39,946 nt of DNA from Candidatus Micrarchaeia archaeon (GTDB lineage: Archaea; Micrarchaeota; Micrarchaeia; CAILAH01), in the NCBI GenBank assembly GCA_038740245.1, contig JAVYLZ010000004.1:1-39946 (forward strand), given 5' to 3'. Shown here in pieces: positions 1,758-27,732 of this stretch. Below the pieces are notes generated by a model, which was given only the letters and a program-made list of their open reading frames with translations, was not told the DNA's origin and searched no databases. Each line of letters starts with the position of its first letter. Position 1 is the first letter of the stretch. The position numbers were made by a program, and so were the translations under genes.

Positions 1758-2597
1758 CTATTTCTTAGGTGTGCTGCCAAAGAAGTTGTTGATAGTTTCA
1801 AGAAGCGAAGTTGTTTTTTCAGCATTAAGAATTTCTTTAAGCGCTTCCTTTTTTACTGGGTTTAATGTGGTTTTATATTCCTCATTCAAAATAGCTTCCC
1901 CCTTCCTCGTATTTATTCGCATTACCGCCTTGGCTGCAATTACAGAGACGTGAAGCGAGTATAATGTTGATCCTACAACAAATTTGCGCGCAATTCTGAG
2001 TGCATCATCTTCATTTGTTATATGCTTCCTGAATATGAGGGCACCCCCAAAATAGCTGAGGGCGATCGGAGTTTTATCTGAAATAAGCGTAACATTTTGT
2101 GATATGCGCGAAGCCATCTCTTCTAGCTTTTTCTCACTGTATGCCAAAAGCTTTATAGTAACATCAAGGCTATCAACTTCATTCTGGGGTAGTGCATTAC
2201 TGTTTATGTCCTTCATATATCTCTCGCTTGAAGCAAAATTAAGTGCATAATCTAGCGCCTCCACTTTGTACTTTCCATAAGTAATGTCCAATACCATCCA
2301 CTTTTGAGCTGCGGGTAAATTGCTCTGCAATACTGCATCTATGAGCGGCCTGCACGCCTCAAAGCTGCGGCTATTTTTGACAAAATCAATCATAAACTTC
2401 TCTTTATCTGCCGTCTTAACAAACTCCTCATACCCAACAACTTTTTGCACCATAATATTACCTCTTTGATCATATTCCTGCGCGCACCCCCCAAATTGCG
2501 TGCACGCTATTAATGATACTGCCGCAAAAGCGACAATATGTCTCCTAAGGTTTTTCTTGCTCCCTTGAAGATTCTGATGCTTCATTTCGTATTTCAT
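1758..2597 (-). CDS. hypothetical predicted lipoprotein (orphan, low-GC island)
   Basis: Long ORF in ~37% GC DNA. After Met at 2597 or 2585 the N-terminus reads K/R-rich n-region, hydrophobic IVAFAAVSLIA, then Cys (L-I-A-C lipobox-like). I recognise no family. Start is ambiguous (2642/2597/2585) and every choice overlaps the upstream gene. Confidence 0.55.
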   Translation of the reverse strand: MKYEMKHQNLQGSKKNLRRHIVAFAAVSLIACTQFGGCAQEYDQRGNIMVQKVVGYEEFVKTADKEKFMIDFVKNSRSFEACRPLIDAVLQSNLPAAQKWMVLDITYGKYKVEALDYALNFASSERYMKDINSNALPQNEVDSLDVTIKLLAYSEKKLEEMASRISQNVTLISDKTPIALSYFGGALIFRKHITNEDDALRIARKFVVGSTLYSLHVSVIAAKAVMRINTRKGEAILNEEYKTTLNPVKKEALKEILNAEKTTSLLETINNFFGSTPKK

Positions 2598-3843
2598 AAC
2601 GTATCCCTTCGTTAAGAACACCTCCAGCCAATTTGCGCCCAAACTGAGCTACAGCAGAGCGGACAACGTAAGCTTTCCCAGACATACCGGATAAAGATTC
2701 TGCAAAATTCTTTGCAATAAGAGCCGTATTTTCAAATATCGGCATATTAATAAACCCTTTACTCAAGTCAAATTGGCGGCCCATAAATTCATAGCATTCT
2801 CTTGCAAGTTCCTTAAAATTGGGCGGCATGTTCTTTTTTATGAATTCAGCCACTTCTTTTAGAGTCTTTTTGCCTTTCTTAGCCAAGGAAAGCATATTCT
2901 CAGCGTTAAGCAGAAAACTCTTGCTTTCTTCTGGGAGTTTAGCACTAAGAAAAGGCATATACGCTGTTACCATAATAACAACTGCATCGCTGGCAGTGAT
3001 TTCTCCCTCTTTTATGCCTGTGCTAACAAGTGTGAACGTAGCATCAATGCTTTTTGGGATTGCCCTAAGTGCCACGCCTTCCCACGTTTGGTACCAGTAA
3101 CGCCCTCCTTCTTCTGCAACTCTAGCAGCATCTTTCATCTTTGCAATCCATCTTGTCTTGCTTATAGCGCCAATTGCGGCCGTGCCAGCCAAAAAAGCAG
3201 CTGTATCTATGAAAAAATCGCGTGCCGCCTTTGAAGCACCCTCAAAAATCTTGCGGTTTTTTTCAAGCTCCCCAAGCGCAAATTCAATATCGCCGACATC
3301 CTGTACTACCTTGCGGACATTCCTTTGGTATGAATCAACTGAAGAAAAAATGCCGTCTAAATCCCCCTTTGCAATTGCATCGGCCATCTTATCAAAATCC
3401 TTTGCGAGGCGATCCGCATTATTTTGGAATGAGATTAATGCGGCATTTGCATCGCTTAATGCCTTAAACTGCGCATCGGCTATCAGGTCTGCATCTGACT
3501 GGGATATCCTTTCAGTAAACGAAAAAATGAAAGTAAAAATCCGCTGGGTAACGTAATTTGCACCTGCCTTAAATGAAGTTGCCTCTTCCCTCATGCGCTC
3601 ATACGACTCTCTGGCCTCAGTTGATTTGATAACTAATTTGCGCAATTCCTGTATCTCCCCCAACAATTTGTTTGCCAAAATTAGTCTTTGGTTAAGAATC
3701 TCAAGCTCGTTTTTTGATAATTTGTCCTTTTGCTCTGCAAGCTGATTCTCAAGCTGCTGCTTTATCTTTACGGTTTTCTCCTCAATCTGGGTCAGCTTTT
3801 GGATTGTTGCACCTGCAGCGGCATGCTGCTCCTGTGCGGCCAT
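2545..3843 (-). CDS. hypothetical coiled-coil protein (orphan, low-GC island)
   Basis: 432-aa ORF. The first ~85 aa are heptad-like and charged (QIEEKTVKIKQQLENQLAEQKDKLSKNELEILNQRL...). Two hydrophobic stretches follow (FIDTAAFLAGTAAIGAI; AVVIMVTAYMPFLSA). No catalytic motif recognised. Confidence 0.6.
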   Translation of the reverse strand: MAAQEQHAAAGATIQKLTQIEEKTVKIKQQLENQLAEQKDKLSKNELEILNQRLILANKLLGEIQELRKLVIKSTEARESYERMREEATSFKAGANYVTQRIFTFIFSFTERISQSDADLIADAQFKALSDANAALISFQNNADRLAKDFDKMADAIAKGDLDGIFSSVDSYQRNVRKVVQDVGDIEFALGELEKNRKIFEGASKAARDFFIDTAAFLAGTAAIGAISKTRWIAKMKDAARVAEEGGRYWYQTWEGVALRAIPKSIDATFTLVSTGIKEGEITASDAVVIMVTAYMPFLSAKLPEESKSFLLNAENMLSLAKKGKKTLKEVAEFIKKNMPPNFKELARECYEFMGRQFDLSKGFINMPIFENTALIAKNFAESLSGMSGKAYVVRSAVAQFGRKLAGGVLNEGIRYEIRNEASESSREQEKP

Positions 3844-3858
3844 GTATCCTAATGCTCA

Positions 3859-4446
3859 ATGCAACAATATAAGCATTTTGAATATAGTTATGCCGTGTCT
3901 GCAACAAAATGCGCAAAGCTGATGGCGGAAGGCAAGTACAGCGAGCTCTATGACTATTGCATTTCGCAAAAAAAGCTAAGCCCAAATGAAACAATATACG
4001 ATTTCTATATGGCGGTTGCATTAATACATTTGCTGCGTATAGAGGAAGCGCGACAAACACTGCAGGAATTGTATTCAAAGGAGGGAAAGGCGATATACTT
4101 GGTGGTATCCGCGATTACGCACCTTATAGAAGGTGATGCGCGGAAAGGGTGTGCAGAAATCAACGAAGCAATAAAAAAGGACGATAATATTGAAGAGCTG
4201 ATGTTCATTTTTGAGCTTTGTATGGAGGAGACGCTGATTGCAAGCGGGCAGGCAGCAATTAAAAAGGCGCTTATGTCAGACCCCATTAAGTCGGCAGAAA
4301 TTCTGCGCACATACTTTGAAGGATTGGCCTCAAACCCAGATCTGACTGCAGATGACAGGCTTAACCTGCTGAATGCGCTTTCAGTATTTGACAGGCTTGC
4401 CCAAAGAATCGCAGGATATAATAAAGTTTCACAGCAAAAGGATTAG
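3859..4446 (+). CDS. hypothetical all-helical, TPR-like protein (orphan, low-GC island)
   Basis: 195-aa ORF with a helix-turn-helix-repeat-like pattern (YDFYMAVALIHLLRIEEARQTLQELY..., GDARKGCAEINEAIKKD...). The first ATG is only 15 nt from the divergent gene's ATG, so Met22 (3922) is an alternative start. Confidence 0.5.
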   Translation: MQQYKHFEYSYAVSATKCAKLMAEGKYSELYDYCISQKKLSPNETIYDFYMAVALIHLLRIEEARQTLQELYSKEGKAIYLVVSAITHLIEGDARKGCAEINEAIKKDDNIEELMFIFELCMEETLIASGQAAIKKALMSDPIKSAEILRTYFEGLASNPDLTADDRLNLLNALSVFDRLAQRIAGYNKVSQQKD

Positions 4447-4447
4447 C

Positions 4448-5812
4448 ATGAGGCAATCAACATTCGTGCTCATAAGCTTGCTGCTTTGCTCATTTGCAGC
4501 GGCGGCCTGGACCGAGACGTATGAGGTGCACGTAGTTGACAAGATGGGCCGGCCGATAAAGGGCGCTGCGGTCACTGCATTCTACCAGAAATCAACGTAT
4601 TACACATCACTGCCGGCTGCAGATGCCCTGGACGGCAAGTCAACGCTTTACACTGATGAAAGCGGCAAGGTTGTGCATACAATATACAATCAGGTTGATT
4701 CCGGGCAGGATGAGCTTGTTAACGTGGGCACAGACGACTCCTACTGGAAGGACAAGTATGAGCTGCGGTCGTATTACCTCCGTGCCAATTACAGCGGGGT
4801 TGTGCAAACTGTACGGATTGACTGCAACCGCGAGGGCCCAAAGTGCCACGATAATATCCCGTACCTTTACTCTTTTGTTATAGATGCATACCGCATATAT
4901 GTATACGCAAGGGACCAGAAGGGGGCGCCCGTTGAAGGCGCAGCTGTGAGCATTGCCGGCCAGAATTTAACTACGGACACGAACGGCATGGCATGGGCAA
5001 ATGCCATAAACGGGCGCACGTACGATGTAAGCGTTTCGTATGCTGGCATCATAAGGACGGGAACTGTGCGCGCTTCAGGTGCAGATGCCAACTTCACCCC
5101 TATGTTTTACAGGTATGATGTGCGCCTGCGGGTGATAGATGACAGGGGCAATCCTGTTGACAGCGATGTGCTGCTCAACGGCGTTGTCAGGCACACCGAC
5201 GAAAACGGCTATGTTGAATTCAATGACCTAAGCATTGATTCTGCAAGGGCAATGGTGAGGTATGCCGGCGGGTTCAGGGAGTATGACCTTAAGCTTAGCG
5301 ATGATGTGGATATGGATGTGGTTGTTGACGGGACTGCTCCTGTGATACAGGGTGTAAGCGAGAAGGCCGACCCCAAGCAGAACATAATCGTGATAAGTGC
5401 TGCGATAAGCGATCCGGGTACTTATGCAAGCGGTATGAACCCGAGCGAGCCGGCCCGCCTTAGGTATAATATTGAGGGGCAGGGGTGGTCCTCAGTAAAC
5501 ATGTATCCTACCGGTATCAGCACGTACCAGGCCACCATACCTTTGGAATACGGCAAAACCATAAACTATGAGATTGAGGCGTTTGATGCGCAGAATAATG
5601 CCGCCAGCTATACCAAGACAATAGGCTTCAAGAAGGGTGAAACGCCCGCCAATAACGAACCTGCGGGCCCAGCGTCCCAAAACGAAACCGCAGGGCCGTC
5701 GCAGCCGCTTGAGAGGACGCATAACATAGATATGATGGCGCTCATAGCGGGCATTGTAATCGCGGGCATAGTGCTGCTCATACTCTATAAGAAGTATACC
5801 GGCGAGATATAA
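4448..5812 (+). CDS. secreted, C-terminally anchored surface protein with repeated beta-sandwich (carboxypeptidase-regulatory-like) modules
   Basis: Start taken at Met26 of the tracked ORF. It gives signal peptide MRQSTFVLISLLLCSFAAAAW and lies 1 nt after the preceding stop. Three modules of the type 'Y.V.V.D..G.P..GA.V' followed by 'TD.NG'. Several N-x-S/T sequons, a P/N/E/T-rich linker and a terminal TM helix LIAGIVIAGIVLLILYKKY. Confidence 0.7.
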   Translation: MRQSTFVLISLLLCSFAAAAWTETYEVHVVDKMGRPIKGAAVTAFYQKSTYYTSLPAADALDGKSTLYTDESGKVVHTIYNQVDSGQDELVNVGTDDSYWKDKYELRSYYLRANYSGVVQTVRIDCNREGPKCHDNIPYLYSFVIDAYRIYVYARDQKGAPVEGAAVSIAGQNLTTDTNGMAWANAINGRTYDVSVSYAGIIRTGTVRASGADANFTPMFYRYDVRLRVIDDRGNPVDSDVLLNGVVRHTDENGYVEFNDLSIDSARAMVRYAGGFREYDLKLSDDVDMDVVVDGTAPVIQGVSEKADPKQNIIVISAAISDPGTYASGMNPSEPARLRYNIEGQGWSSVNMYPTGISTYQATIPLEYGKTINYEIEAFDAQNNAASYTKTIGFKKGETPANNEPAGPASQNETAGPSQPLERTHNIDMMALIAGIVIAGIVLLILYKKYTGEI

Positions 5813-9405: not shown

Positions 9406-10191
9406 CTAGCCACTGCCCGGCAGCGGCCCGAATAAGGCATACAATGAAGCCGCATTTATGAGCATGTGCGCGATTATCGGCGCCTTAACATCACCGCTTA
9501 CCCGATACAGCGCATACAAATATAGCCCCAACAGGAATGTCCCTATAACCTCAATGTACGAGCCGTATGAGTAATGCGCAAGGCCGAACAGCACGCTTGA
9601 CAACACTCCGCCGGTATACCGCGGGAGGAACGCCCTGAAGAATATCTCCTCAGAGAGCGGGCCGAGCGTTATTGCGTAAAGAAGGATGTATGTGGGAAGA
9701 GACATTATCTTTGACTCAACCAGATGGCTGTCATCAAAGCCGAGGTATGGCGCAACTGCAGCCAACAGCACCATAAATATGAATGCAGGTATGAGCGAGG
9801 CCAGTGCGAATGCGGCAGCACGCACTATCCCTCCGTTAAAGCCGAGCGCTTGCAGGAGATTGCCGCACTCTTTTCGGCCAAGCGCCGCGTATACTGGTAT
9901 CAGGAGCATGAGGATGGAAAGCAGGACGGGTGAGAATACGGGGATGTAAAGCGATGCCGCAAGCAGCAGCACAGTTGAGAGTGCGAGCACACGCTTGTCG
10001 GCCGTGCGAAGCAGCAGCGCGGGGGTGAGCGGGGCCAGCACTGCAATATATGCAGGGGCACCGGTAAACACTGCAACTGCAAGCGCAAAAAGGACCGAGA
10101 GCGATGCGAAAATTACCGAAAGAACCGCCCGCCTAATCTTACCGCACGGGCCGGTGCAAGGATTATGGGGGTTACTTGGACTTTTTCTCAT
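9406..10191 (-). CDS. CPBP-family intramembrane glutamic endopeptidase (CAAX protease-like)
   Basis: Motifs EEIFFRAF (EExxxR), FGLAHY (FxxxH) and HMLINA, all within a multi-pass membrane protein. Start taken at Met21 (10191), which still overlaps the S27ae 3' end by 20 nt. Confidence 0.8.
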
Positions 10192-10312
10192 AGTAACCGC
10201 ATTTGCCGCAGGCAACCCTGTCCTTGTGCTCTGCGAGCCGTGTGCCTGCACCGCAGCGGGGGCAGTCCCTACCTTTCTTGTATATGCGCGGCTGTTTTTT
10301 CTTTTCTGCCAT
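10172..10312 (-). CDS. rps27ae: 30S ribosomal protein S27ae
   Basis: Start at internal Met47 of the tracked ORF: [47 protein letters not shown]-x2-C-x14-C-x2-C zinc ribbon and typical size. The upstream extension overlaps S24e and is rejected. Confidence 0.85.
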
Positions 10313-11922: not shown

Positions 11923-14900
11923 TCAGAGCCTGTCTATTATCTCGCGTGCCCTGCGCGCCGCCTTCTTCATTGCAGTTACCACAAAGCCCAAATCCTCATC
12001 TGGCCTTGTTAGCGCCATCACAAGCGTGTGCTCGCCCGCCTTCACTATCACTATCTTGCCCGTCTCTGAATTGAAAAGCACATAATTAACCTCGCCGCGG
12101 TTAAGCGCCTGCGACGCCTGCTCGGCCTTCTGCATTGCGCGTGCGGCAAGAGCCGCAATTGAAGATACATCGTGGCCGCCTGGAAGTGCAGCGCTTATGA
12201 CCAGGCCGTCCCTGCGCAAGATGGCGCCGCCAAGTATGCGCTGGGTGTTCACCATCTCCTCAATTACCTCTGTAATATCCGCCTTGCTTACCCCCTTCAT
12301 CTCCTTGAGCCGCACGAGGTCCGTCCCCTGGAGCACCACCGGGATATCGCCCGTGGATGCGAACCGCTCAAGCACCCATGGGCGCCATTCCGGCGGCACT
12401 GTTGTAAGCATTTCAGGTGAGACACGGTCCTGCCGCGAAATCAATGCGCGCACACTTTCACGCCAGGATGGCCATGCATTCAGGACTGCCTGCTTTTTCC
12501 TAAGCCCCTGCATTACCTCGTCAAGGGCCTTCTCAATCGATGCAATCTCTGAGGAGATTGCCTCTGCGTCCTCAAGCCGTATGTGTGCCAGGCGCTCCTT
12601 TAACGGTGCGATATCCGCAAGGTAAAGCGCCTGCTGCTCTTCAAACGGGAGCAGGCCGCCCTTCGTGCATCCATCCACCTGCCTTTGCGCGGCATCCTTC
12701 TTCTCCTCAAGCGCAAGCAGCCGCTCGTACAATGAGCGCACTACGGGGATCTTACGCTCAAGCTCGGACTTGACCTGCGAAAGCTGCGCGGATACGCGTG
12801 CCTCTTCTTCTTGAGTTAGCGTGCCCGCCGCCGCCTTGCCTATCGCATCTTCCACGCCGATGCCCTCAACCCTGCGCGCATAATCTGAAACGTCTATGCC
12901 TATATCCTCGGCATCCTTAAGCAATACGGACACCTCTGTTGACAGCGCATTAAGCCGCTCAAACGCGCTCATTGAAGAAGTGTGCCTTGATAGCAGGGAG
13001 CGGATGTCCGCATCAAGCTGCGAATACGCCTTCAGCAGTTCCTTGCTGCGCGGTGCCGCCTCATCTATGGGCTGCTCAAACAGGGCGTTTAGTGCATCTG
13101 GGCCGCCCAGTGCATTAAACCGCCGCTCAAATTCCGAGACTTCAACATCCGCCTGGGACGCCTCAAACAGGAGCTTTGGTATGCCATCAATGTATGATTC
13201 TATCTGCGAGATTGCCGTGCCAAGCTCGGCCTCAAGCGCATGTGCCCGTGCAAGCTGATCCTTAAGATGCCTTATTTTCTCCGAGATTGTGGGGATTAGC
13301 TCAGCCGCCTTGTCAAACTTCTTCCTTGAAATGCTTTCAAGCATGTGCGAAAGCAGCACGTCAACTGATGCAACCAAACGGTCACTGCCTGATATCCTTT
13401 TCTCACGCAGCTCTGAAGCCGTGGCGTCAAGCTCATGCCGGAGGTCCGTGTACCTGGCAGAGAATCCTTCTTCCAGAGGGACACCACAGCTCTGGCACCT
13501 TTCTGATGCAAGCGAGGTCATGCGCGAGCATACAGGGCACGCAAAGCGCACTTTCATCAGGCTCTCGGCCTTTGAGATTATTGACTCAAGCTTGGCCCGC
13601 TCCTCTTTTGCGGACTTGAGCAGCTGGTCAAGATGCCTCTTTGCCTCGGCAAACCCCTTGGACTGCAATATGTCGCGATAGCTGTAAAGCGGCGCGCGCA
13701 GTGCCGGCGGCTCGTATTCAATCCCGGCGGCTGATGCGCGTGCGTGCAGCGACTCTATGGCTTCAAGCTCGTCCTCAATTGAGGCGGCCTGCGATGAAAG
13801 TATCTTCTCCTGGTCTATGCGCAGGGACAGCTGCTCGCGCAGTGCATCATACTCTGGCCGTATCCGGCTGCCCAGCATTGCCTCGGCATCGGACGGCCGC
13901 CCCGAAGAGATGGCCGCCTCAGCATCCGAAAGCAAGCGCATGAACGCGGCAATCTTATCAAAATCAACCTCAACGCCCGCGGATATGGCGGACTGCTTAA
14001 GTGCATCAATATCGGCGCGCATCGTGCGTATCTTGTCAAACAGCGCAGGTGCAAGCTCGCGCCTGAGCCGCTCTGCGGATGATACTGCAAGCGACAGCTC
14101 GGACTGCTCCTTCAAGATGCGCTCGCTAACGTCTTCCAGGTGCTTGCGCGCCTCCTTAAGCCCCTTTGAATCCGCAATTCCCTTATACTGCGATATTTCA
14201 GTGCGCCAATCCTTTGGCTTTACATCAATGCCGTATGTTTTTGCGCGCGCGTACAAGTCCTCAACGGCCATTACCTGCATCTCAAGCGATTTCCTGAGCG
14301 AATCTATCGCCGCTGAGCTTTCACGACCTTCAAATATCCTGTCCCGGAGGGATGAATACTCCTGCTGCATCTGCGAAAGCTGCGACTCAAGGTACATCCG
14401 AGCGGCACGGTATCCCTTTGATGATGCAATGCCCTTGTACTTCACTATTTCCGCACGCCAATTTTTCTTCTCAAAGGCAAGGCCCAAAGATGCCGCCTGT
14501 GAATATACCTCCTCAATGGTCGTAATCAGCTGCTCAGCACGCTGGTAAACTGCCTCGGCCTGCAAGCGTTCCTCGCGGTTAAGCATTATCGTTTCCATGG
14601 CAGCGGAATATTCGCGCTGGACCTGCTGTGCTGCGGATTCAAGGTATTTCCTTGCAGCTGCATATCCCTGCATCTCAATTATGTCCTTGTGCTTGTCAAC
14701 AAGCGCACGCAGGTTCTTCCGCTCTATGGGAATGCCAAGCGATTCCGCCTCATTGTATGCATTCTCAATGCGCTCAATCTCCGGCTCCAGGCGCTCGCGC
14801 AGGCCCTCCACGTACAGCTTGTCATCCTTGCACACCGATATGAGCGAGCTGAGCGATGCATAGTCCTGCTTTATGTGCTGTGCTACGGTCTCAAGATGCC

Positions 14901-16857
14901 TTTGCGCGGCCGCAAGCCCCTGCGACTCTGCAATTGCCCTGTACGCATTTGCTTCCTCCCGCCAGTTCTTCCTGTCTATCTTAAGCTGCAGCACGGCCGC
15001 CTGCCCGTAGAGCTCCTCAATCCTCGTGATTTCAGGCTCAAGAGATTCCCTGAGCCGCATGATTGCATCGGTTTCCTGGAGCGCCACCGAGAGTGCCTGG
15101 TGCAATGAAGCATATTCATTTCGCACGGACCTGCTCATCCGCGATTCGGCCTCATCAATGCTGCCCTGCGAAATGAGCTGCTCAATGGGCACAAGCTGCG
15201 CTATAAACCCGTCCGCACGCTGTGAATATGAGGTGAGGCCTGCCGCCTGCGCGCGCTCCTTAAGCGCAATAATCTCTGCGCGCATCTTCTGCACTTCCTC
15301 GCGCAGCTCCTTCTCAACAAGCACCTTGCGTATGCCCTGCGTTACCGGGACACGGAAGTATCTTTCACCAAGCACGAGCCCCTTAACCACATCGGCCACA
15401 AGGAAGTATACTGACACAAGCCCCACAAATATGCAGACCACTGAAATCAGCTGCGTACTGTCGGAAAGCAGGACCTGCAGAATGTCAAACCCTTCCGGCT
15501 CGCCGGCATTCCACGTAAGGTACGTGCCAACTGCGCACATTACCGCTGCAAACGCGAGCATCTGCAGGCGGTTGCGCCCGCCATACCCTGCAACCCTGTA
15601 TACCGCCTCTGCAAGCGGCTCCTTCCTTTGGAAGCATTGCAGTACTGCCACAAGCAGGCGCACAACCACCAAAAGAAGGTATAGCGGGAGGAGCAGTATG
15701 AACATGCCGGCAGCCGCTGCCCATGCAAGCCCCATGCTTGGCCTGAGCTGGCCGGCCACACCGTAAAATGTATCCCTCGCAAGCACATATGCAGGCACGC
15801 CCTCAAGCTCAAGCACCTTGGCAGTGCCACTGGGATATGAAACGGATTTCACAGCTTCATCCCAATTGTGCGGGCCCGTGTCGGCCTTGTATGCAATGTC
15901 ATCACGGACACGGTCGCCCTTTGTGAAGGACAGGCGGTAGCGCGCTACCATCGGGACACTGTCCGAGACGTAGCGCGGCGCAACGATAAATGAAATGTGC
16001 TGCTTGCTGGACGCAAACTGGGAGGGGATTAAGTCGTCAACCTCAATCACTGCGTTCTCATCATAAGTGAATGAGGTCTTAACACTGACCTCATATTTTG
16101 AGTATGCATACGGATACTGCGCACGTGCGGCATCTACATCCTTCGGATAAACCTCCTCAAGCTGGTACAGCGCACTCTGGAGCATAATCAGGTCGTTTGC
16201 GTTGCACAGGTTCTGCTGGAAGATGTACGATGATAGGAGGCGCTGGAGCGATGCCTGCAGCTCGTCGCGCTTTTTTATGATTGCCTCGCGCTCAATCTCG
16301 GATATGTATTGCGATGAGGCGATGAGCTTGCCGAGCTCGCCGGCCTGGCTTTTGACGCGCACAAAATCAACTGAAAATGGGTAAAACGTGGTGTTGAGCT
16401 GCGGAAACTTGTTAAGCCCGTTCTGGCAGCGAAGCCGCGATGTGCATGCGCTCAGGCACTGCTGTTCGCTGTCGCACGGAACAACTTCCTCAATCGCATA
16501 CGTGCACTGCAGGTGAAGCGCCGATACTCCCGACAGCCGCGAATAAGCAGCTTCTGCACGGCTTTCGTTTCTTATGTAGTAATTTTGCAGCTGGAAGGAG
16601 GCATTTTTTTCAATGCCGCGTATGTATATCTCCTTGCGCATGGATATGTCGTTGCCGGTCTGCGTGTCAATAACTGACTGGTCGCGCAGCTTATAGTACC
16701 ATATATCAGGGATTGTGTCGCCGTCACTGTCAGAAACAGTTGCCTTTTCAATAACCGCCTTCTGCGAAACTAGGGGGACTGGGCGCTCAATGCATCCTGC
16801 CGCAAGGATTAGCATGAGAACCAAGGATAGAGTGATTGTAAAGTGCCTTGACATCAT
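11923..16857 (-). CDS. giant (1644 aa) membrane-anchored helical-repeat protein with embedded zinc ribbon and C-terminal Roadblock/LC7 domain
   Basis: One uninterrupted 4935-nt ORF. Signal peptide with lipobox-like LAAGC (aa 1-22). Non-helical N-terminal region with DSDGDTIPD and a Cys-rich patch (aa ~23-374). Three or four hydrophobic helices (aa ~375-492). About 950 aa of charged helical repeats. CPVC-x12-CQSC (aa 1107-1124). C-terminal ~115 aa with the Roadblock/LC7 pattern. Confidence 0.85.
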   Translation of the reverse strand: MMSRHFTITLSLVLMLILAAGCIERPVPLVSQKAVIEKATVSDSDGDTIPDIWYYKLRDQSVIDTQTGNDISMRKEIYIRGIEKNASFQLQNYYIRNESRAEAAYSRLSGVSALHLQCTYAIEEVVPCDSEQQCLSACTSRLRCQNGLNKFPQLNTTFYPFSVDFVRVKSQAGELGKLIASSQYISEIEREAIIKKRDELQASLQRLLSSYIFQQNLCNANDLIMLQSALYQLEEVYPKDVDAARAQYPYAYSKYEVSVKTSFTYDENAVIEVDDLIPSQFASSKQHISFIVAPRYVSDSVPMVARYRLSFTKGDRVRDDIAYKADTGPHNWDEAVKSVSYPSGTAKVLELEGVPAYVLARDTFYGVAGQLRPSMGLAWAAAAGMFILLLPLYLLLVVVRLLVAVLQCFQRKEPLAEAVYRVAGYGGRNRLQMLAFAAVMCAVGTYLTWNAGEPEGFDILQVLLSDSTQLISVVCIFVGLVSVYFLVADVVKGLVLGERYFRVPVTQGIRKVLVEKELREEVQKMRAEIIALKERAQAAGLTSYSQRADGFIAQLVPIEQLISQGSIDEAESRMSRSVRNEYASLHQALSVALQETDAIMRLRESLEPEITRIEELYGQAAVLQLKIDRKNWREEANAYRAIAESQGLAAAQRHLETVAQHIKQDYASLSSLISVCKDDKLYVEGLRERLEPEIERIENAYNEAESLGIPIERKNLRALVDKHKDIIEMQGYAAARKYLESAAQQVQREYSAAMETIMLNREERLQAEAVYQRAEQLITTIEEVYSQAASLGLAFEKKNWRAEIVKYKGIASSKGYRAARMYLESQLSQMQQEYSSLRDRIFEGRESSAAIDSLRKSLEMQVMAVEDLYARAKTYGIDVKPKDWRTEISQYKGIADSKGLKEARKHLEDVSERILKEQSELSLAVSSAERLRRELAPALFDKIRTMRADIDALKQSAISAGVEVDFDKIAAFMRLLSDAEAAISSGRPSDAEAMLGSRIRPEYDALREQLSLRIDQEKILSSQAASIEDELEAIESLHARASAAGIEYEPPALRAPLYSYRDILQSKGFAEAKRHLDQLLKSAKEERAKLESIISKAESLMKVRFACPVCSRMTSLASERCQSCGVPLEEGFSARYTDLRHELDATASELREKRISGSDRLVASVDVLLSHMLESISRKKFDKAAELIPTISEKIRHLKDQLARAHALEAELGTAISQIESYIDGIPKLLFEASQADVEVSEFERRFNALGGPDALNALFEQPIDEAAPRSKELLKAYSQLDADIRSLLSRHTSSMSAFERLNALSTEVSVLLKDAEDIGIDVSDYARRVEGIGVEDAIGKAAAGTLTQEEEARVSAQLSQVKSELERKIPVVRSLYERLLALEEKKDAAQRQVDGCTKGGLLPFEEQQALYLADIAPLKERLAHIRLEDAEAISSEIASIEKALDEVMQGLRKKQAVLNAWPSWRESVRALISRQDRVSPEMLTTVPPEWRPWVLERFASTGDIPVVLQGTDLVRLKEMKGVSKADITEVIEEMVNTQRILGGAILRRDGLVISAALPGGHDVSSIAALAARAMQKAEQASQALNRGEVNYVLFNSETGKIVIVKAGEHTLVMALTRPDEDLGFVVTAMKKAARRAREIIDRL
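11938..12285 (-). other. Roadblock/LC7 (MglB-like) domain at the C-terminus of the giant protein
   Basis: aa ~1525-1640: ITEVIEEMVNTQRILGGAILRRDGLVISAALPGGHDVSSIAALAARAMQKAEQASQALNRGEVNYVLFNSETGKIVIVKAGEHTLVMALTRPDEDLGFVVTAMKKAARRAREI. It follows the alpha-beta-beta-alpha-beta-beta-beta-alpha sequence pattern of archaeal/bacterial Robl_LC7 proteins. This is recognition by eye, not an HMM score. Confidence 0.8.
13564..15324 (-). repeat. protein-level tandem repeats (~80 aa units) inside the giant ORF
   Basis: Type R units at aa ~598-676, 681-757, 762-842, 848-925 and 1022-1098. They share L(R/E)..LEPEI.RIE..Y..A..LGI.....KNWR.E...YK.IA.SKG...AR..LE........EYS.L. Type B units at aa ~512-597 and 928-1015 share MRA(E/D)I.ALK..A..AG......I......(A/I)IS.G...(D/E)AE......R.EY.AL...L. 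Order is B-R-R-R-R-B-R. The repeats are diverged, with no long exact nucleotide repeats. Confidence 0.75.
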
Positions 16858-16908: not shown

Positions 16909-17186
16909 GTTGCGGCTAGGCCGGGGGGCGAGGGGTCCCTTGTAACCGCAAATCCCCTTTATGGTGGGGCCGAAAAGCCTGGAGAGGTGCCGCGATTGTG
17001 TACGGGTCCGCCTGCACAGTGTAGATCCCCTGCCTTGCGCGGCGGCTCACCATACGAACCGGGTCAGGCCGGAAGGAGCATCCCTAAGTATGGTGTGCCG
17101 TGCCGCAAGCCAACAGGGGGGAGCTTGCAGGTTGGGCAAAGCCCTTGCACGGTTGTGACATCCATCCAGGTGAAGCCGCTCACTGA
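16909..17186 (+). ncRNA. signal recognition particle RNA (archaeal 7S RNA), ends approximate (+/-10 nt)
   Basis: Conserved helix-8 motif gggtcaggccggaaggagca (17061-17080) with a GGAA tetraloop. The long helix 5 is visible as colinear complementarity between 16977-17055 and 17093-17172 (for example cctgga/tccagg, ccttgcgcggcggc/gccgtgccgcaagc). 5' gcggct (16912-16917) pairs with 3' agccgc (17174-17179). At ~270 nt it is short for an archaeal SRP RNA. Confidence 0.8.
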
Positions 17187-17305
17187 TGGAAGCGGTCTGT
17201 CTTCCCTATCGCACAAGCGGATTGCTTGGGATGATAGGGCCAAGCAAACTGAAAGTTTGAGGGCGCCTTCTGCAAAAGCAGAAGTGCGGGTGGCAAACCC
17301 CCTAT

Positions 17306-17494
17306 GCTGGGGTCGCCTAGCCAGGTAGGGCGCTGGATTGCTAATCCAGTGGCCGAAAGGCTTCGGGAGTTCAAAGCAGGGAGCTGTGCCCCATGGTGCA
17401 ACTCCGACCTACCCTCCTTTGGAGGGTTTGGGCAGTGGCGGGCTAAGGGGGCGGGGCCCCTTTTGGCTGCCAAGTGAATATCTCCCCCCCAGCG
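17306..17494 (+). tRNA. tRNA-Ser (anticodon GCU) interrupted by a 105-nt intron in the T-loop
   Basis: Exon 1 (17306-17375): acceptor gctgggg, D arm gcc-tagccaggtag-ggc, anticodon arm ctgga-ttGCTaa-tccag, long variable arm tggccgaaaggcttc, T-stem gggag plus ttcaaa. Exon 2 (17481-17494): t-ctccc-ccccagc-g. This restores a 5-bp T stem, a 7-nt loop TTCAAAT, a perfect 7-bp acceptor stem and discriminator G. An oligo-T run follows directly. Confidence 0.8.
17376..17480 (+). other. tRNA-Ser intron (non-canonical position 58/59 or 59/60)
   Basis: Junctions form a relaxed bulge-helix-bulge. Outer helix gggag/ctccc (17365-69/17482-86). 3-nt bulge tat (17479-81). 4-bp helix ttca/tgaa (17370-73/17475-78). 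Then a 2x4 internal loop and inner helix gcag/ctgc (17376-79/17467-70). The interior is GC-rich with hairpins (ccctcc-tttg-gaggg). Confidence 0.65.
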
Positions 17495-26934: not shown

Positions 26935-27732
26935 TTAGGCGAACATCGCCGCAATTGACGCCTGTGCCGAGCTGGCCGATGCGACAAGCACTGCTACCCA
27001 TCCCGCCAAAAATGCGAGGTAAACAAGGGCGGCTGCAATTAAGCCTAGCACAATGCCAATAAGCATATTCAAGATTATTGCCGCAATGGCGCGCTTCTGG
27101 GATAGCCCGTGCACCTCGCGCAGGCCTAGATAAAGCAGGTAAAGCGAGTAAAACAAAAGTGCATAGTTGACTATCCCTAGGCACATCCCGATTACGAGCG
27201 CAGTAAGCACCTGAAGCGGCAGGAACACCGCTATGTTTGCGCCTGCAGAGCACACGAAGAGGTTTGTGGTTTCACGCAATGTGCCCCTGCCGCCAACTAT
27301 TTTTGCAGAGAGGTGCAAAATCCCAGCACCTATCGCGAGCAATATTGGGGGTATTGCCACTGCAAGTATTGCCAGCAGCAGTATTGTGCCAAGCAGGACT
27401 GCAACCGTTGCGAGCGGTGAGGTCATAAGCCCTATGAAGAAAACCAAAAGGCCGCCAATCCCAAGCCAATACCCGTACAGCGGTATCAGGTACCATATTG
27501 AGAGCAAAGTTATGAGCAGGTTCAGGTAGTAGGCTACATAATATTCTTTGATCAGCTCCTTGTACTCAAATCCTTCGCCGAGTGCCTTTTTTATGTCCAT
27601 CCTTGCAAAATCAAGCCATCTCCCTATCTTAGGGTATGGTATTTTTGAGAGTATACGCTCCGAAAAGGAGAGATACTGCATAAGCAGCGACTCAAGATCA
27701 TTCTTAGGGTTTTCCTTCTTCTCGTCCGCCAT
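26935..27732 (-). CDS. multi-pass membrane protein (possibly Yip1-domain-like)
   Basis: 265 aa. A ~60-aa charged N-terminus followed by about five or six hydrophobic helices. The family assignment is tentative. Confidence 0.45.
   Translation of the reverse strand: MADEKKENPKNDLESLLMQYLSFSERILSKIPYPKIGRWLDFARMDIKKALGEGFEYKELIKEYYVAYYLNLLITLLSIWYLIPLYGYWLGIGGLLVFFIGLMTSPLATVAVLLGTILLLAILAVAIPPILLAIGAGILHLSAKIVGGRGTLRETTNLFVCSAGANIAVFLPLQVLTALVIGMCLGIVNYALLFYSLYLLYLGLREVHGLSQKRAIAAIILNMLIGIVLGLIAAALVYLAFLAGWVAVLVASASSAQASIAAMFA

Follow-up and report, generated by a model that had tools for sequence, protein, structure and literature searches.

The stretch of DNA analysed here (hereafter the window) is one entire metagenomic contig of 39,946 bp (JAVYLZ010000004.1) from a Candidatus Micrarchaeia archaeon. 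It carries archaeal genes, including those of TFIIB, aIF5A, Kae1 and the archaeal signal recognition particle (SRP) RNA, as well as SUF genes and 2-oxoacid dehydrogenase genes, and the nearest relatives of the encoded proteins are found in MAGs (metagenome-assembled genomes) of Candidatus Micrarchaeota. As stated in an initial annotation made from the sequence alone, its largest gene (hereafter the giant gene) is a single open reading frame (ORF) of the minus strand; it starts with an ATG and encodes 1644 aa, the next-largest ORF of the window encoding 536 aa. From its N- to its C-terminus, the giant protein harbors a signal peptide with a lipobox, an extracytoplasmic domain (ectodomain), three transmembrane (TM) helices, about 1000 aa of helical repeats broken once by a zinc ribbon, an element rich in tryptophan and arginine (W/R element) and a terminal Roadblock/LC7 domain (Table 1). 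Both this domain order and the membrane topology had been proposed initially, and the lipobox signal, the positive-inside rule and the three TM helices agree with them. Upstream, the giant gene has a region of its own, in which a TTTAAA box precedes the ATG by about 25 nt; the gene is flanked by the divergent SRP RNA gene and by a convergent TatD gene.

Table 1. Features of the giant gene and of the protein that it encodes (aa, amino acids; AF2, AlphaFold2; HMM, hidden Markov model)
Feature	Residues (aa)	Positions in the window	Strand	Basis or remark
Whole gene, lipobox/3-TM/helical-repeat/zinc-ribbon/Roadblock protein	1-1644	11923..16857	-	stop codon 11923-11925
Signal peptide with lipobox (LILAAG/C22)	1-22	16792..16857	-	hydropathy peak aa 5-23; conserved G21/C22
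Extracytoplasmic domain	23-374	15736..16791	-	AF2: beta-sandwich with inserted Cys-rich helical subdomain
Acidic DxDxD(T/G)xPD loop	43-51	16705..16731	-	D43, D45, D47, P50 and W53 invariant
Cys-rich patch (C118, C128, C134, C138, C144)	118-144	16426..16506	-	invariant alignment columns
Three TM helices	~377-411, 430-451, 467-496	15358..15735	-	hydropathy, alignment, AF2
Variable helical-repeat region	511-1096	13570..15327	-	unit order A-B-B-B-B-A-B
Four tandem 84-aa B units		14077-15078	-	NWR period and B-unit HMM
Zinc ribbon CPVC-x10-CQSC	1107-1124	13486..13539	-	C1107, C1110, C1121 and C1124 invariant; modelled beta-hairpin knuckle
Constant-length helical region	1127-1457	12487..13479	-	four units; AF2 and hhalign
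W/R-rich element WPxW(K/R)...(I/V)PPEWRPW	1458-1516	12310..12486	-	helix and beta-hairpin; invariant residues
Roadblock/LC7 domain	1525-1644	11926..12285	-	Pfam, PDB profile search, Foldseek

The C-terminus is a genuine Roadblock domain and belongs to the archaeal/CvnB-like kind. The Pfam family PF03259 matches aa 1529-1612 with an E-value (E) of 8.6e-11 and 41.9 bits for a cut-off of 23. A profile search of the PDB retrieves Roadblock3 of Prometheoarchaeum (9jue, chain 9jue_D, E 1.8e-18), a Thorarchaeota Roadblock (7f8m_A, E 1.6e-16), CvnB5 of Streptomyces (3leq, E 2.8e-11) and a further Prometheoarchaeum Roadblock (7yh1, E 1.6e-10). The domain is modelled as an alpha-beta-alpha fold (local predicted local distance difference test, pLDDT, of 74-83); its Foldseek superposition on 9jue has a target-normalised TM-score of 0.92, a root mean square deviation of 1.4 A and 31% identity. 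The Roadblock/LC7 pattern that had been read in this C-terminus is thus confirmed by a significant HMM match as well as by fold. By sequence and by fold, the domain belongs to the Roadblock superfamily, but it does not have the usual stand-alone form of about 100-130 aa. It is also the most conserved region of the protein, with 90% identity to the ortholog P0002 described below. Roadblock dimers are known to serve as platforms on which small GTPases, or dynein, are docked or regulated (PMC10933270; PMC4316618). By analogy with all solved Roadblock proteins, the C-terminal domain probably dimerises, which would make the giant protein a parallel homodimer.

At the other end of the protein, the lipobox-like LAAGC pointed out initially is found at aa 18-22. 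G21 and C22 do not vary among 9 close sequences; in 88 family sequences, these two residues and D43 show at least 90% conservation, and the features of the giant gene are therefore far beyond chance. The protein has the Sec-type signal ending in a lipobox and the invariant +1 Cys that characterise archaeal lipoproteins, and we infer that Cys22 is lipidated in the mature protein. Lipoproteins are prevalent in DPANN archaea, in which the lipidation enzyme AliA also occurs (PMC12462473).

The ectodomain had been described as non-helical. However, the AlphaFold2 model of the N-terminal 516 aa (9-sequence alignment, mean pLDDT 83.6) includes a Cys-rich helical insert of about 150 aa (aa ~98-251), credited with five of the six invariant Cys of the ectodomain, within a beta-sandwich, the strands of which lie at aa 24-95 and 252-349. 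Foldseek comparison of the ectodomain with PDB and BFVD gives no match at E <= 1e-3, and its sequence has no match in Pfam, NCBIfam or PDB; as modelled, the ectodomain fold is without known relative. The top Foldseek rows (mu-homology domains, carbohydrate-binding modules and adhesin domains) correspond to short beta-sandwich pieces with a query-normalised TM-score of about 0.1 and were rejected. The acidic motif DSDGDTIPD noted previously is present at aa 43-51, but it reads DxDxDT in the giant protein, DxDxDG being the family consensus. Its motif type makes this loop a candidate Ca2+ site. The Cys-rich patch, which had also been noticed, is found at aa 118-144, and its five Cys and C218 are the six invariant Cys of the ectodomain. 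These residues likely form three disulfides; the ectodomains of 11 homologs contain six or seven Cys, and exactly six in 10 of the 11. N-glycosylation sequons show a weak enrichment in the ectodomain (0.53 vs 0.32 per 100 aa), on which we do not rely.

Three or four hydrophobic helices had been noted at aa ~375-492. The helices are indeed present, and both hydropathy and the AlphaFold2 model indicate that there are three of them. They are accompanied by a conserved cytoplasmic loop, EPLxEAVYRVAGxGGR, in which E417-A418-x-Y420-xx-A423-G424-x-G426 are invariant in the close family, and by a conserved juxtamembrane LGxRY motif; D489, K492 and L496-G497-x-R499-Y500 are the invariant juxtamembrane residues. 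Positive residues, found both within the loop that joins TM1 to TM2 (QRKEP...GGRNR) and past TM3 (KG..GERYFR..GIRK), place the ectodomain outside and the C-terminus inside the cell. This topology suits the zinc ribbon and the Roadblock domain, modules of both kinds being cytoplasmic.

Between the membrane and the Roadblock domain, the helical repeats, of about 85 aa each, consist of a membrane-proximal region in which the number of units varies between genomes and of a region of constant length. In this variable region, NWR motifs occur at aa 629, 713, 797 and 881, i.e. with a spacing of exactly 84 aa, and the HMM delimits five B units (aa 594-676, 677-760, 761-843, 845-927 and 1024-1096). Two A units are interleaved with them, giving the order A-B-B-B-B-A-B-Zn up to the ribbon. 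The Cys knuckle reported as CPVC-x12-CQSC was placed exactly, but its spacer has 10 residues. Moreover, it does not stand at the end of the rod, as had been thought: about 400 aa (four helical units and the W/R element) separate it from the Roadblock domain. In an AlphaFold2 model of the C-terminal 550 aa (pLDDT 86.8), the zinc knuckle is followed by two helices (unit X), four units, the W/R element, a flexible linker and the Roadblock domain. Each of the four units is made of a helix of about 50-55 aa and two short helices, and their homology is indicated by hhalign (probability of 95% for units U1 and U2 and of 85% for U2 and U3). Residues W1462, P1463, W1465, P1488, R1492 and P1493 of the W/R element are invariant, and searches of Pfam, NCBIfam, PDB (by sequence and by fold) and BFVD yield no relative for this element.

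The presence of a zinc ribbon within a long helical region could evoke an SMC/Rad50/SbcC-like coiled coil with a zinc hook, having a role in DNA transactions or, like LmuB, in defence. Weak profile matches are indeed obtained at aa ~900-1310, around the ribbon, for SbcC-like proteins of PHROG (E 4.5e-6) and for LmuB of PADLOC (E 1.6e-4), and an SMC family of NCBIfam gives E ~0.03-0.08. However, these matches cover only the coiled-coil/hook part of the profiles. The protein has neither a Walker A motif (P-loop) nor an SMC_N or AAA Pfam match, hence no ATPase head, and it is an integral membrane protein with an ectodomain. Furthermore, the flanks of the ribbon are unequal, one varying from 175 to 596 aa and the other being constant at about 400 aa, unlike those of an antiparallel hairpin. 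The missing ATPase heads and the asymmetric flanks of the ribbon make this very improbable reading one that can be regarded as effectively excluded.

Since the giant gene is long, internally repetitive and derived from a metagenomic contig, it could also be suspected to result from a chimeric or repeat-collapsed assembly or from the fusion of neighbouring genes. An ortholog from an independent MAG, P0002 of MAG SKW92 (contig JAOAKR010000004.1), answers this concern, which had been raised in the initial annotation: it has 1643 aa, is collinear with the giant protein and is 76% identical to it, with a single gap. Identity is 46% for the signal peptide and 67-90% elsewhere; it reaches 72% for the ectodomain, 71-86% for the extra B units and 67-87% for the ectodomain and the cytoplasmic regions other than the Roadblock domain. 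With one gap in 1644 aa, the extra repeats are, as judged from this alignment, under purifying selection. In addition, ten further homologs share both ends and the fixed 537-aa C-terminal part. At the DNA level, Tandem Repeats Finder detects no tandem repeat with a 252-nt period in the giant gene and reports just three short (8-18 nt) low-scoring arrays near the 5' end; the only matches at the 252-nt period are stretches of 35-37 nt with 60-78% identity. The B units are mutually 23-42% identical. Their duplications are old and therefore cannot have misled the assembler. An artefact is thus hardly credible and, like the SMC-like reading, is effectively excluded.

The giant protein is less singular than was supposed. 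A word-indexed search recovers 11 close homologs that are either unnamed or labelled 'roadblock/LC7 domain-containing protein' from Micrarchaeota or Micrarchaeia. Their N-terminal part, comprising the lipobox, the ectodomain and the three TM helices (hereafter the N-module), has 488-511 aa, and 536-537 aa separate the last zinc ribbon from the C-terminus in all of them. Their length varies only between the N-module and this last ribbon: this stretch has 175 aa (A+B) in the homologs of about 1200 aa, 266 aa in P0010 and P0011 and 596 aa in the giant protein and P0002, and it is made of three A-B-Zn-X modules in P0003. Hence, P0003 has three zinc ribbons, the long subfamily having one.

An exhaustive search with an N-module profile against 1.84 billion representative proteins extends this family to 80 proteins (about 80 clusters at 50% identity) at E <= 1e-3, including 35 at E <= 1e-10. 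Almost all of them have the lipobox Cys at position 15-29, most have DxDxDG about 20 residues past this Cys, and three TM helices are present in every member that extends as far as the membrane region. The W/R element occurs throughout the family, although in the strict form used for the search it is seen in about half of the full-length members. Lengths in the family range from 590 to 1763 aa and fall into four classes (~590-655, ~735-830, ~1060-1300 and 1643-1763 aa). The family's own HMM finds a Roadblock or Roadblock-like C-terminus in about half of the wider family, with confidence in the 590-655-aa class and from 1060 aa upwards. Of eight diverse members scanned with Pfam, four have a Roadblock match above the cut-off and one more has a match that falls short of it. 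The ~750-aa class ends in a diverged Roadblock that is weakly recognisable (hhalign probability 93%, E 3e-7). Taken together, nearly every full-length member couples the N-module to a Roadblock or Roadblock-like end. In the shortest class (P0015, P0017, P0018, P0021, P0023, P0027 and P0028), the match to the N-module is limited to aa ~261-499 and a short N-terminal stretch; these proteins are therefore devoid of the Cys-rich helical insert, which, from these alignments, appears to be a subdomain accessory to the beta-sandwich core.

The family core can join the N-module to the Roadblock domain by as little as about 150 aa of helix, so that the rod of about 1000 aa is not the defining trait that it was thought to be. 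By sequence comparison, the giant size is a lineage-specific expansion of the rod in a family in which the pairing of the ectodomain and three TM helices with a Roadblock domain is ancestral and persistent. Since this pairing is kept across about 80 clusters and four length classes, both ends appear to work together whatever the length of the rod. P0026 of Ca. Gugararchaeum adminiculabundum (1720 aa; locus L006, CABMDC010000001.1, 10001-15163) has the lipobox-ectodomain-3TM module followed by six tandem copies of a helical unit and W/R element, and no Roadblock domain; its gene is complete inside the contig and adjoins the genes of Trm5, ScpA, ScpB and a ribosomal-protein operon. This natural Roadblock-less variant could help to work out what the W/R element does.

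All members for which the source is named are from Micrarchaeota, namely Micrarchaeia, Anstonellales and Ca. Gugararchaeum adminiculabundum. Furthermore, a scan of GTDB species representatives for the pattern of the long subfamily identifies six loci, five of which are titled Micrarchaeota, Micrarchaeia or Micrarchaeum and one (Dive96) 'archaeon'. The family thus so far appears specific to the phylum Micrarchaeota. Databases already label members of this family of about 80 clusters as Roadblock proteins, and literature searches combining Micrarchaeota or DPANN with roadblock found no description of it, in line with the earlier statement that no characterised family with this architecture is known. 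What is new here is the architecture assembled around a known domain and, as predicted, an ectodomain fold of its own.

In the long subfamily, the gene lies in a conserved neighbourhood that includes genes of an ACT-domain protein, TatD, aIF5A, S24e, S27ae, an Rce1-like protease, Kae1 and a CDP-alcohol phosphatidyltransferase. Such a housekeeping neighbourhood indicates vertical inheritance of the giant gene; it provides no functional partner in this subfamily. The Rce1-like CAAX/CPBP intramembrane protease (9406-10251, minus strand) is located four genes from the giant gene, with TatD, aIF5A and S24e between them; this arrangement is kept in all the long-subfamily loci examined and probably only reflects the housekeeping neighbourhood. 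Directly upstream, the divergent archaeal SRP (7S) RNA gene (16909-17182, plus strand) is recognised by Rfam RF01857 (108.5 bits, E 7e-24); since the ORF at 16987-17328 (plus strand) overlaps it, this ORF is spurious. The upstream ORFs of the window are not homologous to those of locus L001.

Other observations concern the remainder of the window. A probable tRNA-Ser(GCU) gene is found at ~17306-17492 (plus strand), with a non-canonical intron of about 90-110 nt in the T-arm region. Its Rfam match (17306-17378, 24.1 bits) is below threshold; the 5' acceptor, the D-arm and the anticodon arm are good, and a complementary 3' acceptor, CCCCAGC, is present at ~17486-17492, ahead of a T-run. The intact gene escapes ARAGORN, which does call a tRNA-Ser(gct) after in silico removal of the intron block. 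A Yip1-domain membrane protein (26935-27732, minus strand; Pfam E 1.7e-8) is encoded inside a cluster of 2-oxoacid dehydrogenase (E1 alpha/beta, E2, E3) and lipoate ligase genes; at the corresponding position, between E2 and E3, loci L004 and L005 carry a gene of about 252 aa with no recorded Pfam match. In addition, the window encodes a secreted-type protein of 479 aa with CarboxypepD_reg and Big_1 domains (4373-5812, plus strand) and carries a 432-aa ORF without Pfam match (2545-3843, minus strand); both are located in a stretch where the GC content dips (0.42 at 2-4 kb vs ~0.52 elsewhere). In related loci, a CarboxypepD_reg gene of about 430 aa adjoins the GTPase and TFIIB genes.

Several known systems share part of the organisation of the giant protein. 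The solved Asgard and Thorarchaeota Roadblocks are homodimers that resemble Ragulator subunits (PMC10933270). Asgard Roadblock3 (9jue) and the Thorarchaeota Roadblock (7f8m) have the same fold as the C-terminal 120 aa, with target-normalised TM-scores of 0.89-0.93 and 28-33% identity. However, these are soluble proteins of about 115-130 aa, whereas here the domain ends a lipobox/3-TM protein of 1644 aa. The closest system in logic is the Streptomyces conservon, which also associates a membrane sensor with a Roadblock: CvnA is a sensor kinase, CvnB a Roadblock, CvnC a DUF742 protein and CvnD an MglA-type GTPase. The likeness of the C-terminal domain to CvnB5 places it with CvnB-like Roadblocks. 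Nevertheless, neither the giant protein nor its neighbours have HAMP, HisKA, HATPase, DUF742 or GTPase matches, and here sensor and Roadblock are carried by a single polypeptide of an archaeon. The MglB-MglA system of Myxococcus and Thermus shares the Roadblock fold (target-normalised TM-scores of 0.76-0.88 for MglB by Foldseek). It differs in that there is no significant sequence likeness and no mglA within four genes, and in that the domain is fused here to a membrane protein. By the criterion of PMC4316618, the Roadblock of the giant gene is an 'orphan'; it does not belong to MglB in the narrow sense. In Ragulator, LAMTOR1 anchors LAMTOR2/3 and LAMTOR4/5 Roadblock dimers to the lysosomal membrane, where they serve Rag GTPases. 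The membrane-tethered Roadblock platform is shared by analogy only, LAMTOR2 being not significant by sequence (E ~0.07) for a target-normalised TM-score of about 0.8. Moreover, Ragulator is tethered by a distinct lipidated subunit that lies on the cytoplasmic face, whereas the tether here is covalent, consisting of TM helices and a rod of about 1000 aa, and is completed by an ectodomain.

These data lead us to favour, tentatively and with a likelihood slightly short of even, an envelope-spanning scaffold or receptor that is anchored by a lipid and by TM helices and that bears a Roadblock docking platform on a cytoplasmic helical rod. Both ends of the ectodomain would be held against the outer face of the membrane, one by the lipidated Cys22 and the other by TM1. 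The three TM helices return the chain to the cytoplasm, where the rod would keep the Roadblock platform a set distance away from the membrane. Dimerisation of the Roadblock would make the whole protein a parallel homodimer, and its platform could dock or regulate a partner in the cytoplasm, for which a small GTPase or a different nucleoside triphosphatase (NTPase) encoded elsewhere in the genome is the most plausible candidate. The state of the ectodomain (Ca2+, surface layer (S-layer) and pseudoperiplasm, or host contact) might thereby be linked to a cytoplasmic assembly. The proximity of the Roadblock domain to the Asgard dimers and to CvnB5, which in the membrane-associated conservon GTPase system is the Roadblock subunit, argues for this scaffold. 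The domain order and topology, the persistent pairing of both ends, the strong conservation of the Roadblock domain, the purifying selection on the extra repeats, vertical inheritance, the prevalence of lipoproteins in DPANN archaea and the known function of Roadblock dimers with small GTPases likewise speak for it.

Various data weigh against it. The coupling to a GTPase-type switch is purely inferred, and the link with a GTPase has no genomic support: no Ras-, Arf- or MglA-like GTPase, no DUF742 protein and no second or stand-alone Roadblock gene is found in the 40-kb window or in 256 kb around 9 family loci. Domain searches of the window genes thus agree with the initial statement that no MglA-like GTPase gene is present; the sole GTPase of the window is of the MMR_HSR1/RsgA type, devoted to ribosome biogenesis (1035-1754). 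Around the genes of the distant members P0026 and P0019, the neighbours are unrelated and there is no conserved non-housekeeping neighbour. By sequence, MglB chains 6h5b, 6izw and 6hjm give E-values of 0.28-0.49, which are not significant. Homologs of MglB without a coupled mglA represent 328 of 749 prokaryotic homologs (44%), none of which has been characterised (PMC4316618). Furthermore, the loss of the Roadblock end by P0026 means that this end is not indispensable in every member. Lastly, the predicted template modelling score is only 0.44-0.54, so that the packing between domains in the models is unreliable; the rod geometry is a prediction.

Alternatively, and as the main rival to this reading, the protein could be a purely structural membrane skeleton or envelope organiser, forming an EzrA- or spectrin-like lattice or spacer beneath the membrane, with the Roadblock as a dimerisation cap and without any GTPase. 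Such a lattice would shape a small coccoid cell, position sites of division or of S-layer anchoring, or tether cytoplasmic structures. Like EzrA and spectrin rods, the giant protein associates an N-terminal membrane anchor with serial helical units. About 60% of it is helical repeat, under purifying selection and with a length strictly conserved between orthologs, and the number of units differs by lineage, as for a ruler or spacer. The lack of GTPase linkage in the loci examined, the absence of a Roadblock domain from P0026 and vertical inheritance among housekeeping genes also suit a structural role. The envelope of Micrarchaeota comprises one membrane, a pseudoperiplasm of 20-25 nm and an S-layer, the anchoring of which over the pseudoperiplasm is unresolved (bioRxiv 10.1101/2021.04.28.441871). 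However, an ectodomain of about 350 aa is too small to span 20-25 nm, and EzrA has neither ectodomain nor Roadblock, the unit of the giant protein being a helix of about 50-55 aa with two short helices. The Spectrin_4 match (15.3 bits vs a cut-off of 24.2, E 0.024) is below threshold, hence spectrin-repeat identity was rejected; this was also the case for an NCBIfam ASRP match (E ~0.03-0.08). Identity with an S-layer protein was discarded as well: the S-layer protein of Micrarchaeota, SLP_Mh, is another protein that bears an S-layer (PF05123) domain, and the giant protein has no PF05123 match. In addition, the Roadblock is the best conserved domain and is kept, at least in a diverged form, in most of the family, even with a rod of about 150 aa, which exceeds what a cap needs. 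We regard a purely structural role as somewhat unlikely, and the scaffold or receptor with a docking platform remains our preferred reading.

A special case of this preferred scaffold or receptor is a sensor or adhesin devoted to host contact, the ectodomain recognising the surface or filaments of the host while the rod and the Roadblock organise remodelling at the attachment site. In the exhaustive search, the family appears restricted to the host-dependent Micrarchaeota, the predicted ectodomain is novel, disulfide-rich and surface-exposed with a Ca2+-type loop, and surface remodelling at contacts between a Micrarchaeon and its host is documented (PMC8975820). However, the ectodomain shows good conservation (identity of 72% to the ortholog and of 39-48% across the long subfamily), without the rapid divergence typical of determinants of host specificity. 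Moreover, it would be tethered at both ends near the membrane, beneath the S-layer. We regard a role in host contact as decidedly unlikely. A broader proposal, which is unlikely but less so, is that the protein is a signalling device confined to Micrarchaeota and made of a single polypeptide: a lipid-anchored extracellular sensor with a new fold, three TM helices, a rod of tunable length and a Roadblock that switches a small GTPase or another NTPase encoded elsewhere. It would be a prokaryotic, covalent counterpart of Ragulator or of the conservon, relaying host or envelope contact to the organisation of the cytoplasm in a DPANN symbiont with a reduced genome.

Micrarchaeota are genome-reduced and host-dependent, and very little is known about how their envelope, S-layer and host contacts are linked to the interior of the cell. 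In their small genomes, the genes of this family are among the largest and join an ectodomain of unknown fold to a domain of the class that, in organisms ranging from bacteria to humans, forms docking platforms for small GTPases. Whatever its role, the ectodomain, which has no likeness in PDB or BFVD, is worth a structure determination. Should the protein prove purely structural, an archaeon devoid of most known cytoskeletal systems would have in it a candidate membrane skeleton or ruler. If its Roadblock end recruits an NTPase, it would be the first example of a Roadblock platform fused directly to a membrane receptor, and studies of signalling or of cell organisation in DPANN archaea would gain a concrete handle.

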